64,000 nucleotides of DNA from Candidatus Campbellbacteria bacterium (GTDB lineage Bacteria > Patescibacteriota > Minisyncoccia > Phycocordibacterales > UBA1006). Made by a program: the position numbers and the translations under genes. Position 1 is the stretch's first letter; each line of letters begins with the position of its first letter. The DNA is taken from positions 10,794 through 74,793 of the forward strand of contig NZWR01000003.1 of the NCBI GenBank assembly GCA_002698305.1, in the 5' to 3' direction. This document shows positions 4,167 to 56,044 of the stretch, piece after piece. The notes under the pieces were generated by a model. That model worked only from the letters and a program-made list of their open reading frames with translations. It was not told where the DNA came from and ran no database searches.

Positions 4167-5261
4167 TTAGCCTCCGCCAAATAATGATATTCGTATCCCG
4201 CCCGGACTACTGTTGTAATGTAGATTACCAAAACTTGAGCCACCAAAATTCGATGAGTTTTGATTAAGGTTAAAAATTAACCCAACATCATCACCCGGGT
4301 TATAGTCACCTGGACCTGGATCCTCATCCTCTGGAGTATTTGGATCAAAAGGGTCATCTCCTCCATTAGCTAAGGCGTCAATGCCATAGTAGGCTCCTGT
4401 CGATAACGCAGCACCTCCTAAAATAAATGCTCCTACTCTAGCTACAGATGGGCCTTCAAAACATCTTCGTGCTTTTCTTCTGTCAGGCCCATACGGAATG
4501 GTTCTTTCGTTAAAGGCTGTTCTCGAATCAGTTTGCTGCCATAAGCGGTAGGCTTCTGGGTACTTTTGTGCCCACATTGTCTGACAACTGTTTAGAATGT
4601 ACTGAGTGCGGTACTTAGTCGTTTCTACGGGAATATTTTTAGCATCAACTGCCAAATTCCCTGTCATTACCACCGGTTGTGTTCTAGAAACAGTAGGTGT
4701 TCCAAGTTCTGCTGGAGTATAGCGAATACCATTATCAAAATCTTTGTTTCCAGATTCATAGAATAATTGATTATCCTGATTCTGATTGTTTGGATTTTGG
4801 TATTCATATCCTGTTATCAGCGTACCTTCGCAGTTGTCGGTTACCGTAAAAGGTACTTTTCTCTTTATTGGGTTACCACATCCTGCCGGAGCCTCAAATC
4901 CATCGCTTAGCCTGGTTACTATCCAATGACCAAAATTGGTCTCTACAAGGAATGTTCCTTTTTCTCCTAAATAGTCATAGGTTTGGTTTCTCCCTCGTGA
5001 CAGATCCATATCAACCCACATTGCTGCTCCTGGACTACGTACCTGATATCCAGGGACGTTTTTCCAATCACCAACAAATTTGGCATCATATACATCTTCC
5101 ATAAGCGCAACCATAACAGGGTCTGATTTTCTCAGCTCTATATAATTAGCTCGTGAGGTCAAGTTTGCAGTGTTTTGGATTAGCTCGCTGCGGCAAATTT
5201 CCTGCGCTACTGCAGTGCCTGAAAAGACAATAATAAGTAGCAAAAATAGCATTTTTTTCAT
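4167..5261 (-). CDS. secreted/membrane-anchored hypothetical protein (signal peptide, C-proximal TM, Gly/Asn/Asp/Pro-rich tail)
   Basis: Signal MKKMLFLLLIIVFSGTAVAQE, hydrophobic VGAFILGGAALSTGAYYGI, then a low-complexity tail. Has its own promoter. Confidence 0.65.
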   Translation of the reverse strand: MKKMLFLLLIIVFSGTAVAQEICRSELIQNTANLTSRANYIELRKSDPVMVALMEDVYDAKFVGDWKNVPGYQVRSPGAAMWVDMDLSRGRNQTYDYLGEKGTFLVETNFGHWIVTRLSDGFEAPAGCGNPIKRKVPFTVTDNCEGTLITGYEYQNPNNQNQDNQLFYESGNKDFDNGIRYTPAELGTPTVSRTQPVVMTGNLAVDAKNIPVETTKYRTQYILNSCQTMWAQKYPEAYRLWQQTDSRTAFNERTIPYGPDRRKARRCFEGPSVARVGAFILGGAALSTGAYYGIDALANGGDDPFDPNTPEDEDPGPGDYNPGDDVGLIFNLNQNSSNFGGSSFGNLHYNSSPGGIRISLFGGG

Positions 5262-38070: not shown

Positions 38071-39129
38071 ATGAAAACAGAAGTAACAAAAAAAGAAAAT
38101 GCAGAGGTTGTTATCAGCGTGGTGTTACCCAACAAAGATATCCAGGTATATAGGGATGATGTTGAGGCAGCACTTATCAAGAAAGTAAAAGTTGATGGAT
38201 TCCGAGAAGGCAATGTTCCAAAAGATGTTGCTATGAAGCAAATCAGTGAGATGCAAATTTTAGAAGAAATGGCTCAGCGCGCAATCAGCGCTAAATATGT
38301 CGAGATTCTTGAAAAAGAAGATATTAAGGCGATTGGACATCCACAAATTTCTATTACTAAAATTGCTCCCGACCAAGACCTAGAATTTACGATTACGACT
38401 GCTATTATGCCAGAGGTAACATTGGGTGATTATACAAAGATTGCTAAAGAAGCAATGAATGAGGAATACTCTGAAGATGTTGAGGAAAAAGAGCTTGAAG
38501 AAGCAATTAATAACCTACGGCGAATGCGAGCACAGCAAGAGCTATCTAAAGATCAAAAAGAAGGAGAAGAGCCGGTTTCATGGAGCGATATTAAAGATGA
38601 AGAGCTACCAGAGCTCACTGATGAATGGGTTAAAGAATTGGGGAGCTTTGAAAATGTTGAAGACTTTAAATCAAAGATGAAAGAAAATCTTCAAAAAGAA
38701 AAAGCAGCTAAAAACACAGAAAAACGACGAATTGCTATTCTTGACGGTATTTTGAAAGACTCAACGATTGAGGTGCCGGCAATTATGGTTGACTATGAAA
38801 CTGATAAGATGATGCATGAATTTGAAGGAAATATTGCAATGACCGGTATGAGTTTTGACGATTATCTAAAATCAATCGGAAAAACTCGTGAAGATTATAA
38901 AAAAGAATGGCGAGAACAAGCAGTGAAACGAGCAAAAACGCAGGTTATGCTGAACGAAATAGCCGCTCAAGAAAAGATTGAAGCTGATGACAAGGAGGTA
39001 GATGAAGAAGTAACAAAGATTATGGAACAATATAAAGGACAACAAGGTGTTGATGAAAATAATGCCCGCGCGTATGTTGCAACCGTACTGACACATCAAA
39101 AAGTATTTGAATTTTTAGAGAAACAATAA
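38071..39129 (+). CDS. tig: trigger factor lacking the FKBP/PPIase domain (352 aa)
   Basis: The N-terminal ribosome-binding domain (GFREGNVP..) and the C-terminal arm domain are recognisable. The central GD.V.IDF.G...G..F segment is absent. Followed by clpP, as in many bacteria. Confidence 0.8.
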   Translation: MKTEVTKKENAEVVISVVLPNKDIQVYRDDVEAALIKKVKVDGFREGNVPKDVAMKQISEMQILEEMAQRAISAKYVEILEKEDIKAIGHPQISITKIAPDQDLEFTITTAIMPEVTLGDYTKIAKEAMNEEYSEDVEEKELEEAINNLRRMRAQQELSKDQKEGEEPVSWSDIKDEELPELTDEWVKELGSFENVEDFKSKMKENLQKEKAAKNTEKRRIAILDGILKDSTIEVPAIMVDYETDKMMHEFEGNIAMTGMSFDDYLKSIGKTREDYKKEWREQAVKRAKTQVMLNEIAAQEKIEADDKEVDEEVTKIMEQYKGQQGVDENNARAYVATVLTHQKVFEFLEKQ

Positions 39130-40970: not shown

Positions 40971-40998
40971 TTGCATTTTGAAATGACTTTGCTAGTAT
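40971..40998 (+). promoter_or_regulatory. promoter upstream of the tRNA-like element / tRNA-Gly
   Basis: TTGCAT (40971-40976), 16 nt, TAGTAT (40993-40998). Confidence 0.45.
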
Positions 40999-41031
40999 TA
41001 TTGATGTTCTTGAAAAAGAATTAAATAATTT

Positions 41032-41147
41032 GCGGGCGTAGTTTATAAAGCTAGAATATTGGTACTCCAACTAGCTGAGGGGTGACTAGATGTCACACCG
41101 AAGAAGAGTTCGATTCGAATTCTCGTATCACTAAACTACGTCTACCA
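41032..41147 (+). ncRNA. tRNA-Gly-derived tRNA-like RNA: 12-bp terminal helix ending in an encoded ACCA, not a canonical cloverleaf
   Basis: The first 14 nt are identical to the adjacent tRNA-Gly. 41034-41045 pairs with 41132-41143 (12 bp, with G:U at helix positions 1 and 3), followed by ACCA. Internal hairpins: GCTAG/CTAGC and GGTGAC/GTCAC. A T-loop-like GAGTTCGATTC is present, but there is no acceptor/T-arm arrangement. Confidence 0.45.
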
Positions 41148-41153
41148 AAATAT

Positions 41154-41224
41154 GCGGGCGTAGTTTAGTGGTAGAATATCTGGCTTCCAACCAGAGGACG
41201 AGAGTTCGATTCTCTCCGCCCGCA
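41154..41224 (+). tRNA. tRNA-Gly (anticodon UCC), no encoded CCA
   Basis: Manual cloverleaf: acceptor GCGGGCG/CGCCCGC, anticodon arm TCTGG-CTTCCAA-CCAGA, T-arm GAGAG-TTCGATT-CTCTC, discriminator A. Confidence 0.9.
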
Positions 41225-41296
41225 CATCAGAAAAAACCCTTATTTTTACGGGTTTTTTCTTGTACACGTGGAGGGAAGTATAGTACAAATCGAAAC
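41225..41296 (+). repeat. junction element copy A (abuts the tRNA-Gly 3' end)
   Basis: CAGAAAAAACCC-hairpin-GGGTTTTTTCTT, then the right arm GTACACGTGGAGGGAAGTATAGTACAAATCGAAAC. Homologous to copies B and C. Confidence 0.6.
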
Positions 41297-41420
41297 ATAT
41301 ATATCTGTAGATGGATAACTTGACAATAGATATTATATATGATATATTTAAATTGAACTACTTTTAGTGAGTTAAAGCAGTAGATAATGTCTTTTGCTTT
41401 AACTCACTAAAAAAAGAAAA

Positions 41421-41624
41421 ATGAGAACAATTCAATTTATGTTTATCGATAAAGTTTCTGGTAAGGTTTATACTAACAAAATAGAAACTGACAAAAAAAT
41501 GACAGAGGATAATATACATCATCCCGAAGAAAGTTACGCTCTAAAAGCAGAACTAACTAAAGACTATGATGAAATAACATTTGCTCGTCAAATAATAATT
41601 ACGTCTTGGAGTATTTTTGAGTAA
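41421..41624 (+). CDS. module 1: 67-aa hypothetical protein
   Basis: Preceded by TTGACA-17-TATATT (41320-41348) and an 18-bp leader hairpin (41362-41412). Followed by terminator AACCCTTTC..GAAAGGGTT. Confidence 0.45.
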   Translation: MRTIQFMFIDKVSGKVYTNKIETDKKMTEDNIHHPEESYALKAELTKDYDEITFARQIIITSWSIFE

Positions 41625-41693
41625 AATATTTGAAATACTACTAACCCTTTCTTCATAGAAAGGGTTTTTTACTTATCATCTACAATTATATCC

Positions 41694-41836
41694 GTTCGAA
41701 CACTGTCCCACATCGTGCACACCAGAAAAAACCCTTACAAAATAAGGGTTTTTTCTTATACGCCAGTAAAATAACGAACTGTATTTTACAAGTACTCTTG
41801 GGGTGCACGTGGAGGGGAATATGGAGTAAATCGAAC
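41694..41836 (+). repeat. junction element copy B (~143-bp imperfect inverted repeat)
   Basis: Left arm GTTCGAACACTGTCCCACATCGTGCAC (41694-41720), central terminator-like hairpin AAAAAACCCTTA..TAAGGGTTTTTT, right arm GTGCACGTGGAGGGGAATATGGAGTAAATCGAAC (41803-41836). Confidence 0.7.
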
Positions 41837-41899
41837 TATAATAAAAAAGTACCTCGAACAGAATGTGTTCGAGGTGTTTTTTGTTTACTTTTTAACTCT

Positions 41900-43208: not shown

Positions 43209-43279
43209 ACCCAAAAGTAAAAACTGGTTTAGCCCACTGCATTATGCATGGGCTTTTTTATTCCATATTTAATATATTT

Positions 43280-43578
43280 GTTCGAACACTGTCCCACATC
43301 GTGCACAAATTTTTAAGAAATAACGCGAAAGCGTTTTTCTTTTTAAATTTTGTATGATTCTAGTCGTCATCCATCGTGGTGACCGATTCTCCGCCCGCAG
43401 GACTTATTTCTAAAGAGCGATAGCGACTATAGAAATAGAACTACCCCTGTGGTGCAACAGAAAAACCCTTTATTTGTAAGGGTTTTTTCTTATACGCCAG
43501 TGAGGTAGAGAGTGATAACGACTATATTCCACAAGTACTCCTGGGGTGCAGGCGGAGGAAATGTATATCAAATGGAAC
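43280..43578 (+). repeat. junction element copy C (expanded, contains a tRNA-Gly 3' remnant)
   Basis: Identical left arm GTTCGAACACTGTCCCACATCGTGCACA (43280-43307). A ~150-bp insert includes 43384-43399. Conserved centre CAGAAAAACCC..GGGTTTTTTCTTATACGCCAGT. Right arm GTGCAGGCGGAGGAAATGTATATCAAATGGAAC (43546-43578). Confidence 0.7.
43384..43399 (+). pseudogene. partial copy of the tRNA-Gly 3' end (att-like remnant)
   Basis: CGATTCTCCGCCCGCA versus tRNA-Gly CGATTCTCTCCGCCCGCA (2-nt deletion). No 5' half is present. Confidence 0.6.
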
Positions 43579-54544: not shown

Positions 54545-56044
54545 ATGAAAAGGATTACTCCAAAAAATATACCAAAGGGGGTGCGCTGGGTTATTGACCA
54601 ACTCCAGAGTGCAGGACATGAGGCTTTTATCGTTGGGGGTTGCGTTCGAGATATGATTATCGGCCGTGAGCCAAACGATTGGGATGTTACAACAAATGCT
54701 GTTCCTGATGAAATTATTAAGGTATTTGAAAAAACTGATAGGCGAGTAGTCTACGAAAATAATTTCGGTACGGTGGGTATCGTAAATAAAGAATTAGAAA
54801 AAGAAGATCCAGCTTATGAAATTGAGATAACCCCGTACCGAACAGAGGGTGACTACTCGGATAACCGTAGGCCTGATCAGGTTTCCTTTAGTACAGAAAT
54901 TACAGAAGACCTGATGAGGCGTGACTTTACCATTAACGCGATGGCCTATGATCCTACTCGTGAGCTCTTGGTTGATGAATACGGAGGAGAGCGTGATATT
55001 GAAAAAGGTGTCATTAGGACAGTTGGAAATCCTGACGAGCGATTTTCCGAGGACGCGCTTCGCATTATGCGTGCTGTCCGCTTTTCAGCGCAGCTTGGTT
55101 TTGTTTGCGGAGAAGAGACAATGCAAGCAATACGAAATCACGCTAAACGATTACAAAATATCTCGGCCGAACGGATTCGTGATGAGTTTATTAAAATTGT
55201 TGATGCTCCGTATGCGATGGATGGCATTACGAGCCTTCATACACTTGGCATGTTAAAGTATATTGTTCCTGAACTTGAAGAGGGTATCGATTGCGAGCAA
55301 GGAGGCATTCACTCATTTGACGTGTGGACCCATAATCTAAAATCACTTGAACATGGAACCCATAAAAACTATCCATTCTATGTGAAACTTGCCGCATTGT
55401 TTCATGATATTGGGAAACCTGCGACTCGCCGCAAGGCAAATGGGCGTGGAAGCAAGGAGTGGACCTTTTATGGTCACGAGGTTGTTGGGGCACGTATGGC
55501 ACGTGACATTATGCAGCGCCTAAAATTTCCGAAAGACACTATTGAAAAAGTATATAAACTTGTCCGGTACCATATGTTTTTTTCTGACCCTGATGCGATT
55601 ACCTTATCAGCAGTACGGCGAATGGTAAAAAATGTCGGTAAGGATATGATTTGGGATTTGATGGATCTTCGTACCTGTGACCGTATTGGAACAGGGAGAC
55701 CTAAAGAAAAACCATATCGCCTGCGTAAATATCATGCCATGATTGAAGAGGTGATACGTGATCCCATTTCCGTTGGTATGCTGAAGATTAATGGTGACAT
55801 TATGATTGGTGAAATGGGGTTACACCCTGGACCAAAAATGGGCTGGGTACTACATGCGTTATTAGAGGAAGTGCTTGATGATCCAACTAGAAATACAAGA
55901 GAGTATCTTGAACAACGTACGCGTGAGCTCTATGAATTACCAGACCAAGAAATAAGGAAGCTTGGCGAAGCAGGGAAGGACAAAAAAGAAGAAGAAGAGT
56001 TTCAGGCAGTGAAAAAGCTGCACCGCAAACACAAGGTAGGTTAA
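54545..56044 (+). CDS. cca: CCA-adding tRNA nucleotidyltransferase with HD domain
   Basis: GGCVRD...DWDVTT head domain, RRDFTINAMA, and HD region LFHDIGKP. TATACT lies 6 nt upstream of the ATG. Confidence 0.88.
   Translation: MKRITPKNIPKGVRWVIDQLQSAGHEAFIVGGCVRDMIIGREPNDWDVTTNAVPDEIIKVFEKTDRRVVYENNFGTVGIVNKELEKEDPAYEIEITPYRTEGDYSDNRRPDQVSFSTEITEDLMRRDFTINAMAYDPTRELLVDEYGGERDIEKGVIRTVGNPDERFSEDALRIMRAVRFSAQLGFVCGEETMQAIRNHAKRLQNISAERIRDEFIKIVDAPYAMDGITSLHTLGMLKYIVPELEEGIDCEQGGIHSFDVWTHNLKSLEHGTHKNYPFYVKLAALFHDIGKPATRRKANGRGSKEWTFYGHEVVGARMARDIMQRLKFPKDTIEKVYKLVRYHMFFSDPDAITLSAVRRMVKNVGKDMIWDLMDLRTCDRIGTGRPKEKPYRLRKYHAMIEEVIRDPISVGMLKINGDIMIGEMGLHPGPKMGWVLHALLEEVLDDPTRNTREYLEQRTRELYELPDQEIRKLGEAGKDKKEEEEFQAVKKLHRKHKVG

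Follow-up and report, generated by a model that had tools for sequence, protein, structure and literature searches.

What is the 116-nt element that stands six nucleotides upstream of tRNA-Gly(UCC) in a 64,000-nt stretch (hereafter the window) of contig NZWR01000003.1, and why has it been kept there? The window is a chromosome stretch of an uncultured marine member of the Patescibacteria (the NCBI label on its HU protein is Candidatus Campbellbacteria), with the local gene order Ppa, Tig, ClpP, HU, terminator, promoter, 33-nt leader, element, 6 nt, tRNA-Gly, terminator. In an earlier note made from the letters alone, the element was taken for a tRNA-Gly-derived RNA whose paired ends form an acceptor/T-stem minihelix, with an encoded ACCA and the identity set of alanyl-tRNA synthetase (AlaRS). 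The region around the element is identical in nine independent marine metagenome assemblies and is therefore no assembly artefact. Our analysis identified the element as a unit of a conserved, lineage-restricted repeat family that is derived from tRNA-Gly and located 5′ of tRNA-Gly(UCC) in a clade of Patescibacteria (Paceibacteria), and we consider it probable that such units act as tRNA-mimicking passenger RNAs. As far as sequence and predicted folds can establish them, the derivation from tRNA-Gly, the position in the transcription unit, the family membership, the structural constraint and the tandem copy-number variation are demonstrated.

Derivation and predicted fold of the element

The first 14 nt of the element (41032–41045) are identical to the start of the adjacent tRNA-Gly (41154–41167), and when 5 nt of leader are included the direct repeat between element and tRNA extends to 19 nt (AATTTGCGGGCGTAGTTTA), 18 of which match. 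A second block, AGAGTTCGATTC (41105–41116), agrees with the tRNA T arm at 12 of 12 positions. The element without its first 14 nt aligned collinearly with the tRNA with a score of 49.4, compared with 24.2 ± 4.3 (maximum 38.6) for 1000 shuffled sequences (z ~6). The two exact blocks and the collinear interior confirm the proposed derivation from tRNA-Gly.

The minimum free energy (MFE) of the element is −41 kcal/mol, against −24.5 ± 3.2 kcal/mol for 200 shuffled sequences, none of which was as stable (z = −5.09). The structural features listed in the earlier note were all located: the closing helix of 12 bp between 41034–41045 and 41132–41143, whose first and third pairs are G:U and next to which ACCA (41144–41147) stands, the T-loop-like block, the CTCCAA remnant of the anticodon loop, and the GCTAG/CTAGC and GGTGAC/GTCAC hairpins. 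A conserved purine-rich junction, GAAGAA (41100–41105), precedes the hairpin derived from the T arm. The topology of the predicted fold (Table 1) does not, however, agree with a minihelix. The closing helix is modelled as one continuous duplex joining the two ends of the element, not as an acceptor stem stacked on a T stem with a T-loop cap, and this part of the earlier description had to be abandoned.

Table 1. Features of the element and of its transcription unit, in window positions
Feature	Position	Strand	Basis
Putative promoter of element and tRNA-Gly	40971–40998	+	−35 TTGCAT (40971–40976), 16-nt spacer, extended −10 TGcTAGTAT (40990–40998)
Leader hairpin (GUUCUU-GAAA-AAGAAU) between promoter and element	41006–41021	+	fold prediction for the full transcript
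Element: one unit of the tRNA-Gly-derived repeat family; four-way junction shut by its own 5′ and 3′ ends	41032–41147	+	fold, covariance models, alignment
5′ arm (GCGGGCGTAGTTTA), equal to tRNA-Gly positions 1–14; 41034–41045 is the closing-helix 5′ strand	41032–41045	+	identity
Hairpin 1 (GCUAG..UUGG-UACU-CCAA-CUAGC), remodelled D-loop and anticodon arm, 7-nt anticodon loop gone	41049–41076	+	fold
Variable-arm hairpin (GGGGUGAC-UAGAU-GUCACACC), insertion at the tRNA variable-region position	41080–41099	+	fold
T-arm-derived hairpin (AGAGUUCG-AUU-CGAAUUCU)	41105–41123	+	fold and T-arm match
3′ arm; 41132–41143 is the closing-helix 3′ strand	41126–41146	+	sequence, fold
ACCA, strain-specific	41144–41147	+	GGCA in L026; absent here in L045, L046, L056 and L057
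Spacer without G, U(−1) last, abutting G+1 of the tRNA	41148–41153	+	sequence and family alignment
Functional tRNA-Gly(UCC), CCA not encoded	41154–41225	+	ARAGORN; Rfam tRNA model, 74.1 bits
Terminator-like hairpin and T run closing the transcription unit	41229–41260	+	sequence and fold

The element matched no established RNA class, in agreement with the view that it is neither an ordinary tRNA nor a known tRNA-like RNA. ARAGORN called neither a tRNA nor a tmRNA on it, and Rfam 15, which covers tRNA, tmRNA and bacterial Y RNA (YrlA), gave no match on 41032–41147 at gathering thresholds or at E ≤ 10.

A repeat family with a covarying fold

We defined the tRNA-Gly leader repeat family by two covariance models, R1 and R2; the latter was built from seven units and scores the window unit at 119.3 bits. 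At least four other lineages have units of about 108–123 nt at the same site, singly or in tandem arrays of up to three. Among the related loci (L numbers), two tandem units lie 5′ of tRNA-Gly in L045, the members of the L056–L064 population carry a single unit each, and L043 has a degenerate unit. The L046–L054 population (HU P0028) carries one to three 123-nt units in the arrangements c1+tRNA, c2+tRNA, c1+c2+tRNA and c2+c2+..., and the varying number and order of c1 and c2 indicates, from the sequences at hand, ongoing unequal recombination in the 123-nt array. Several assemblies of this population break off inside the repeat. In three populations every contig with sufficient reach carries at least one unit. 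R2 recovered all known units, and in the other loci searched it gave weak matches on the tRNA-Gly genes themselves and nothing more. The window unit shares the location of the family, between the TTGCAT...TGCTAnTAT promoter with its leader and tRNA-Gly(UCC), 3′ of hup (HU), and its features: a GCG... 5′ end copied from the tRNA, the motif CTAGCTGAG, a variable-arm hairpin with inner UGA/UCA, the motif GAAGAAGAGTTCG, a 3′ arm that pairs with positions about 6–14, and a G-free spacer ending in U.

The conservation figures given here rest on a MAFFT alignment made without fitting to structure. From it RNAalifold recovered the closing helix (columns 1–3/113–115 and 6–12/104–110), the variable-arm hairpin (columns 44–55/61–72) and the foot of the T-derived hairpin (columns 75–77/92–94). 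Standard pairs fill 93.2% of the cells of this consensus structure, and 7 of its 23 pairs have changed on both sides, compared with 3.4 ± 1.0 in shuffled alignments (0 of 500 equalled the observed count) and with 0–2 when the partners were slid. A model-fitted alignment of nine units gave 12 double-changed pairs, but we did not rely on it, as the 5′ arm of copy 1 of L045 is wrongly placed in it.

The double changes fall in both main helices. Closing-helix column pair 6/110 is C-G in the window, U-A in L045 and in L056/L057, and U.G in L046, and column pair 10/106 is G-C, G.U or A-U. The 5′ arm of L057 has diverged from the tRNA jointly with its own 3′ arm (U6-A, A10-U). The variable-arm hairpin is present in all units; its inner UGA/UCA is constant while its outer pairs covary, with double changes in 5 of 10 pairs. 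Within L046 the outer variable-arm pairs of c1 (AGAGTGAT/ATCACTCT) and c2 (GGGGTGAC/GTCACGCC) are wholly different, yet compensatory, in units that are otherwise identical. The foot pairs of the T-derived hairpin (G-C, A-U, G-C), the motif GAAGAAGAGTTCG and the G-free spacer ending in U before the next GCG are all conserved, and the single-stranded motifs CTAGCTGAG and GAAGAAGAGTTCG are kept between lineages whose ClpP and HU are only about 80% identical. Conservation of the helix in relatives had been set beforehand as the test of the earlier note. The comparison indicates that the closing helix and the variable-arm hairpin are held by compensatory changes and that the element is no plain decaying pseudogene. 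The argument from the remodelled 3′ strand against simple decay therefore stands through covariation; the remodelling itself, however, is ancestral to the family and not particular to this genome.

This bears directly on the possibility of a species-specific decaying tRNA pseudogene or a mobile-element insertion scar. The lost anticodon loop would fit it, as would the first surveys: neither blastn nor the first covariance model, which was built from a single sequence, found a homolog in the first 36 related loci (L001–L036), and no element was found in 15 GTDB relatives and the four closest HU relatives. The view of the element as a species-specific relic was overturned when added HU look-ups and the covariance model revealed units in L043, L045, L046–L054 and L056–L064. 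With homologous covarying units in four other lineages, no second copy in the window by sequence search or covariance model, and no terminal-repeat or target-duplication signature, we assign this explanation a negligible probability, and a mobile-element origin was rejected on the latter two grounds. A phage origin, prompted by the HU-like gene, the tRNAs and the CCA-adding enzyme, was dropped because the neighbours of the element, Ppa, Tig, ClpP and HU, belong to a Patescibacteria chromosome; a BLAST search against 50,697 phage records returned tRNA-Gly as the sole match. When viral contigs were scanned twice for family patterns, the outcome was nil or chance matches, and a metagenome scan for 5′ arm ... 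inverted arm ... tRNA gave two chance matches only, the pattern with TAGTTTA/TAAACTA being too specific. Lineages that carry the element and lineages that lack it are intermingled on a ClpP+HU tree, from which we conclude that the element is old and that its loss has occurred repeatedly. Recombination between the tRNA-identical 5′ end of a unit and the tRNA would excise the unit scarlessly. In the closest HU relative (87% identity; L031:4277–4723, also L032–L034 and L039) about 450 nt of non-coding sequence, with no tRNA, follow hup in the place taken in the window by the element and tRNA-Gly.

The family also decides the fate of the ACCA end. The lack of an encoded CCA in all three window tRNAs was borne out, as was the CCA-adding enzyme at 54545 (Pfam domains of open reading frame (ORF) 54545–56044: PolyA_pol head, RNA-binding, HD and tRNA_NucTran2_2). 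In L026, which is 1.5% divergent (52 differences in 3,533 nt), the element ends in GGCA. The differences between L026 and the window in this region are at 41129, 41139, 41144 and 41145, all in the 3′ arm, and at 41152 in the spacer; despite the four 3′-arm changes, the fold energies are −41.5 and −41.0 kcal/mol, respectively. In L045, L046 and L057 the top of the helix reads G1:U/C, C2:G, G3:C, with an internal loop (GG/AA or G/A) next to these pairs; the helix is followed by U, and no CCA comes after it. Since the other lineages have a G at the position of 41144 that pairs with C2, A41144 goes back to a recent G→A transition, by which C2:G was disrupted. On sequence comparison, the uninterrupted 12 bp of the window are accordingly best described as a local elaboration of the family helix. 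In the tig gene, at 38415–38427, five substitutions separate the window from L026 within 13 nt, although the two strains diverge by 1.5% otherwise; as in the 3′ arm of the element, linked changes are clustered here, and the two clusters suggest multi-nucleotide mutation or recombination events in the window population.

The earlier model of a minihelix-like RNA with encoded ACCA, G3:U70 and A73 that is alanylated by AlaRS is thus left with the observation that in the window strain, and only there, the 12-bp helix has G41036:U41141 as its third pair and A-CCA after it. GGCA in a strain that is 1.5% divergent, G3:C with neither A73 nor a CCA past the helix in the other lineages, and the derived state of A41144 all contradict it, and it needs a 5′ end at 41034, 2 nt inside the conserved GCG start. 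We regard it as scarcely credible. By comparison with the relatives, G3:U70, A73 and CCA appear as coincidences of one strain, and the window unit should be neither a decoding tRNA nor an AlaRS substrate. A general caution follows for such searches, as an encoded ACCA beside a helix can come from a single transition.

A related proposal concerns glycine. After a cut by RNase Z and CCA addition, a unit would present the acceptor top of tRNA-Gly (G1, C2:G71, G3:C70 and U73 in most lineages) and, as a non-translational amino-acid carrier or tRNA decoy, would be charged by, or bind, a tRNA-Gly-specific factor. The terminal pairs GCG/CG(U/C) and the following U are kept in L045, L046 and L057, the UCC anticodon loop is retained in the units of L045 and L046, and CCA is added post-transcriptionally in this genome. 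The window strain, however, has C2 opposite A, G3:U and no anticodon loop, and even the most tRNA-like units of the relatives reach 27.1 and 20.0 bits with the Rfam tRNA model (RF00005), under its threshold of 29. We judge this proposal very improbable.

Transcription, cross-pairing and the rival explanations

Judging from the arrangement of conserved signals, the precursor of tRNA-Gly(UCC) most likely includes the element as its 5′ part. The putative promoter (Table 1) recurs as cTTGCAT-N16/17-TGCTAnTAT before tRNA-Gly or units in L040, L043, L044, L045, L046 and L057. In L040/L041 and L044 the same promoter and leader are followed directly by the identical tRNA-Gly. The 70 nt 5′ of the element align with the 70 nt 5′ of the L040 tRNA with 50 of 68 matches (score 25, shuffles −3 ± 4), whereas the 70 nt 5′ of the window's own tRNA-Gly give a score of −16, that is, no alignment. 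As the alignment falls 5′ of the element and not 5′ of the tRNA, the element fills the ancestral tRNA slot, and because it is located where relatives have the tRNA itself, 33 nt past a conserved promoter, it is probably co-transcribed with tRNA-Gly. No terminator was found in the sequence between the two, and the working tRNA-Gly would depend on read-through transcription across the element. An alternative promoter, TTGATG-17-AATAAT (41001–41029), was taken as a chance match; the start would fall inside the 5′ arm, and its L040 counterpart would truncate the tRNA.

The leader hairpin of L040 (about 4365–4380) has TTCCC/GGGAA against TTCTT/AAGAA in the window, i.e. two T-A to C-G double changes; leader hairpins are alike in L044, L045 and L057, a compensatory conservation irrespective of the presence of the element. 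Every unit is trailed by an A/T/C-rich tail with T last, followed by GCG; the tail takes up 8–11 nt after the closing helix in other lineages and 6 nt after ACCA in the window. The window tRNA-Gly is identical to the tRNA-Gly of L036, L040, L044 and L057. Comparison of L040:4395–4468 with window 41154–41227 revealed the same tRNA-Gly(UCC) with different 3′ ends, in which L040 encodes CCA (…CGCCCGCACCA) and the window does not (…CGCCCGCACAT), so that CCA encoding switches between close relatives.

The comparison shows that the family arose from a tandem tRNA-Gly duplicate that gained a hairpin at the variable-arm position, an altered T arm and a 3′ arm pairing with tRNA positions about 6–14. 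As a result of the last change, the ends of the unit are joined in a long closing helix, where a tRNA has a 7-bp acceptor stem. Expansion, contraction and precise loss of units appear to proceed by recombination between the tRNA-identical 5′ ends. In the scheme that we propose, the unit would be transcribed from the tRNA promoter and fold on itself during synthesis, RNase P would free it from the tRNA by cutting at the U|G junction 41153/41154, and a possible second cut at the unit's own 5′ U|G junction (41031/41032) would leave a compact RNA with its ends locked in a helix. Selection would act on the closed fold and the variable-arm hairpin and not on an aminoacylatable end, and the dose of the passenger RNA would be tied to tRNA-Gly transcription. 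A more specific version, in which the units are dedicated tRNA mimics, excised by RNase P and RNase Z, CCA-tailed and acting in trans as an extra-translational glycine carrier or else, as decoy or sponge, capturing a tRNA-Gly-binding factor or toxin, with the dose set by tandem copy number, we think unlikely.

The shared sequences also permit pairing between the element and the tRNA downstream. Sixteen of the first 20 nt of the tRNA are matched by complementary bases in the 3′ arm (41126–41145), all differences being transitions, and its T-arm strand by the 3′ strand of the T-derived hairpin. A cis-acting conformational switch could be built on this, in which the 3′ arm would pair either with the element's own 5′ arm (tRNA free) or with two parts of the tRNA, its T-arm strand and its first 20 nt (tRNA trapped), thereby gating the maturation of tRNA-Gly(UCC). 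For the window transcript the cross-paired form is the predicted MFE structure, at −83.3 kcal/mol with 41 cross pairs, against −65.4 to −65.6 kcal/mol for the closed element plus cloverleaf; the MFE is predicted to switch after 17 nt of the tRNA have emerged, over an estimated refolding barrier of at most about 15 kcal/mol, and L046 behaves likewise (−71.7 vs −58.6 kcal/mol). Such pairing is, however, automatic where unit and tRNA share their 5′ strands, and it is not conserved: in L057 (−52.5 vs −49.1 kcal/mol) the MFE contains one cross pair and keeps unit and tRNA apart, and the covariation there goes with the helix of the unit and not with the tRNA. Nor is there an evident ligand or sensor. 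We rejected a conserved switch on the evidence of L057 and hold a switch of any kind to be quite improbable. The folding models present cross-pairing as a by-product of the shared 5′ strands, which may add selection for the closed fold.

From the palindrome of L026, which extends right to its centre (GCAAA|A|TTTGC), the 3′ arm might seem to have arisen recently, by inverted duplication of the tRNA 5′ end through template switching; this was rejected, since in the family the arm is ancient and the centre is non-palindromic elsewhere. Template switching could plausibly have produced the stem extensions in the common ancestor (PMC8794818).

Several observations weigh against a passenger RNA under selection and can be taken together. 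The covariation test comprises about five independent lineages, and kinship can inflate its shuffle control. The part derived from the D and anticodon arms has no conserved fold: the D arm and anticodon loop are still identical to the tRNA in L045 and L046 (the L046 units equal their tRNA over the first 38 nt), and the GCTAG...CTAGC hairpin occurs in the window and in L056/L057. The unit is absent from L040/L041 and L044 and degenerate in L043, and is therefore dispensable in some lineages. Cleavage by RNase P and RNase Z is deduced solely from geometry, namely U(−1)|G(+1) and the helix of both ends, and must be read as a model. The cross-paired folds predicted for the window and L046 trap the tRNA and would suit a tolerated nuisance equally well as a function. 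Furthermore, template-switch mutations can make or repair stems, including perfect stems in one event, without selection (PMC8794818).

A rival explanation is a neutral or selfish tRNA-linked tandem repeat devoid of RNA function, regenerated by unequal crossing-over, with stems owed to concerted evolution, template-switch repair and selection against misfolding of the adjacent essential tRNA only. Copy number does vary inside one population, the absence in L040 and L044 is precise, the L043 unit has decayed, and with the 3′ third of the unit antisense to the tRNA and the cross-paired fold 13–18 kcal/mol stabler than the native-like one in the window and L046, the closing helix could merely sequester the antisense 3′ arm. 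We nevertheless prefer the passenger RNA over the selfish repeat, which we consider possible but doubtful, because the variable-arm hairpin (with its five double-changed pairs) and the junction motifs are conserved though unrelated to the tRNA, because L057 keeps its own helix after divergence from the tRNA and the loss of cross-pairing, and because all far-reaching contigs of the three populations retain a unit despite a one-step deletion path.

Further repeats were noted 3′ of tRNA-Gly. A module present in three copies (41226–41299, 41721–41840 and 43455–43560; also 41687–41721 / 43273–43307) consists of a terminator-like hairpin (AAAAAACCC...GGGTTTTTT) followed by CTTrTACrC...GTGCACGTGGAGGGrAATAT.GAGTAAATCGAAC, and its copies bracket ORFs for small hypothetical membrane proteins. 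Rfam gave no match on this module, which could represent direct repeats of islets inserted beside the tRNA gene or a repeated terminator or small RNA (sRNA) module. A 23-nt inverted repeat (41362–41412; 91% complementary, 5-nt loop) lies just 3′ of a strong promoter-like site, TTGACA-17-TATATT (41320–41348), and just 5′ of a 67-aa ORF (41421–41624) that had no Pfam match.

Significance and comparison with known systems

The family matches no Rfam family and is previously undescribed, within the known kind of tRNA-derived or tRNA-linked structured RNAs; a literature search found no description of such an element in the Candidate Phyla Radiation. If functional, it would add a tRNA-derived non-coding RNA to the extremely reduced genomes of that radiation, where few regulatory RNAs are known and each retained 120 nt calls for explanation. 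It also offers a natural case of a tRNA duplicate rebuilt into another stable fold, with arms zipped longer and a hairpin at the variable-arm position, and with intermediates in sister lineages. The covariance model is supplied and can be run on all Patescibacteria genomes. As a finding, the element outranks a pseudogene and falls short of an aminoacylatable mimic in interest.

Non-decoding RNAs with paired 5′ and 3′ ends and tRNA-like parts, some of which lie in tRNA clusters and are processed by tRNA enzymes, include the bacterial Y RNA YrlA, tmRNA and the stable RNAs (species 1 and 2) of the phage T4 tRNA cluster. The element has no Rfam match to YrlA or tmRNA, and the likeness is a lead only. 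Staphylococci possess non-proteinogenic tRNA-Gly genes in addition to, and beside, the proteinogenic ones, with an altered T arm. These share with the family units the origin from tRNA-Gly and the T-arm alteration, but they are canonical chargeable cloverleaves, which the family units are not.

Allo-tRNAs, found in metagenomes, are true cloverleaves that combine a long variable arm with acceptor/T-stem branches of 8/4 or 9/3, that is 12 bp (PMC5389517). Their 12 bp are an acceptor plus a T stem with a T loop, next to a normal anticodon arm, whereas the window helix is a single duplex of both ends and a UACU tetraloop hairpin, with no 7-nt anticodon loop, takes the place of the anticodon arm. 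The CCA-adding enzyme tags unstable tRNAs and tRNA-like RNAs with CCACCA when they have a 5′ GG, a weakened helix end and CCA (PMC4307339). The element would share these features (GG, a helix end weakened by G:U, and CCA) if its 5′ end were G41034, an assumed end, and then in this strain specifically. The tRNAOther of Bacillus cereus is a retained pseudo-tRNA that takes no part in translation (PMC3399842). Like the family it is tRNA-derived, but it is a stand-alone cloverleaf-like gene beside a genomic island, whereas the family has lost the cloverleaf and its units lie, as tandem repeats, in the leader of the parent tRNA.

The nearest bacterial analogue is provided by the tRNA-linked repeats (TLRs) of E. 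coli, long unexplained, which the family mirrors. TLRs are short repeats within operons for tRNA and rRNA, where a locus has between one and five of them (Egan & Landy 1978; for a review see PMC8144298). Each unit is co-transcribed with the tRNA or rRNA gene beside it, with which it has an exact 18–19-nt block in common; most have no known function, and three are processed sRNAs (PMC8144298). Both systems thus consist of repeat units in stable-RNA operons that share sequence with the neighbouring gene. They have no sequence in common, and the host phylum is different. TLRs lie downstream and copy the 3′ end of the gene, whereas the family units, including that of the window, lie upstream and copy the 5′ end (14–38 nt), so that the window unit is an analogue of the TLRs and not a member; unlike TLRs, the family units retain the tRNA body in full, though remodelled, and their closing helix and variable-arm hairpin show covariation.

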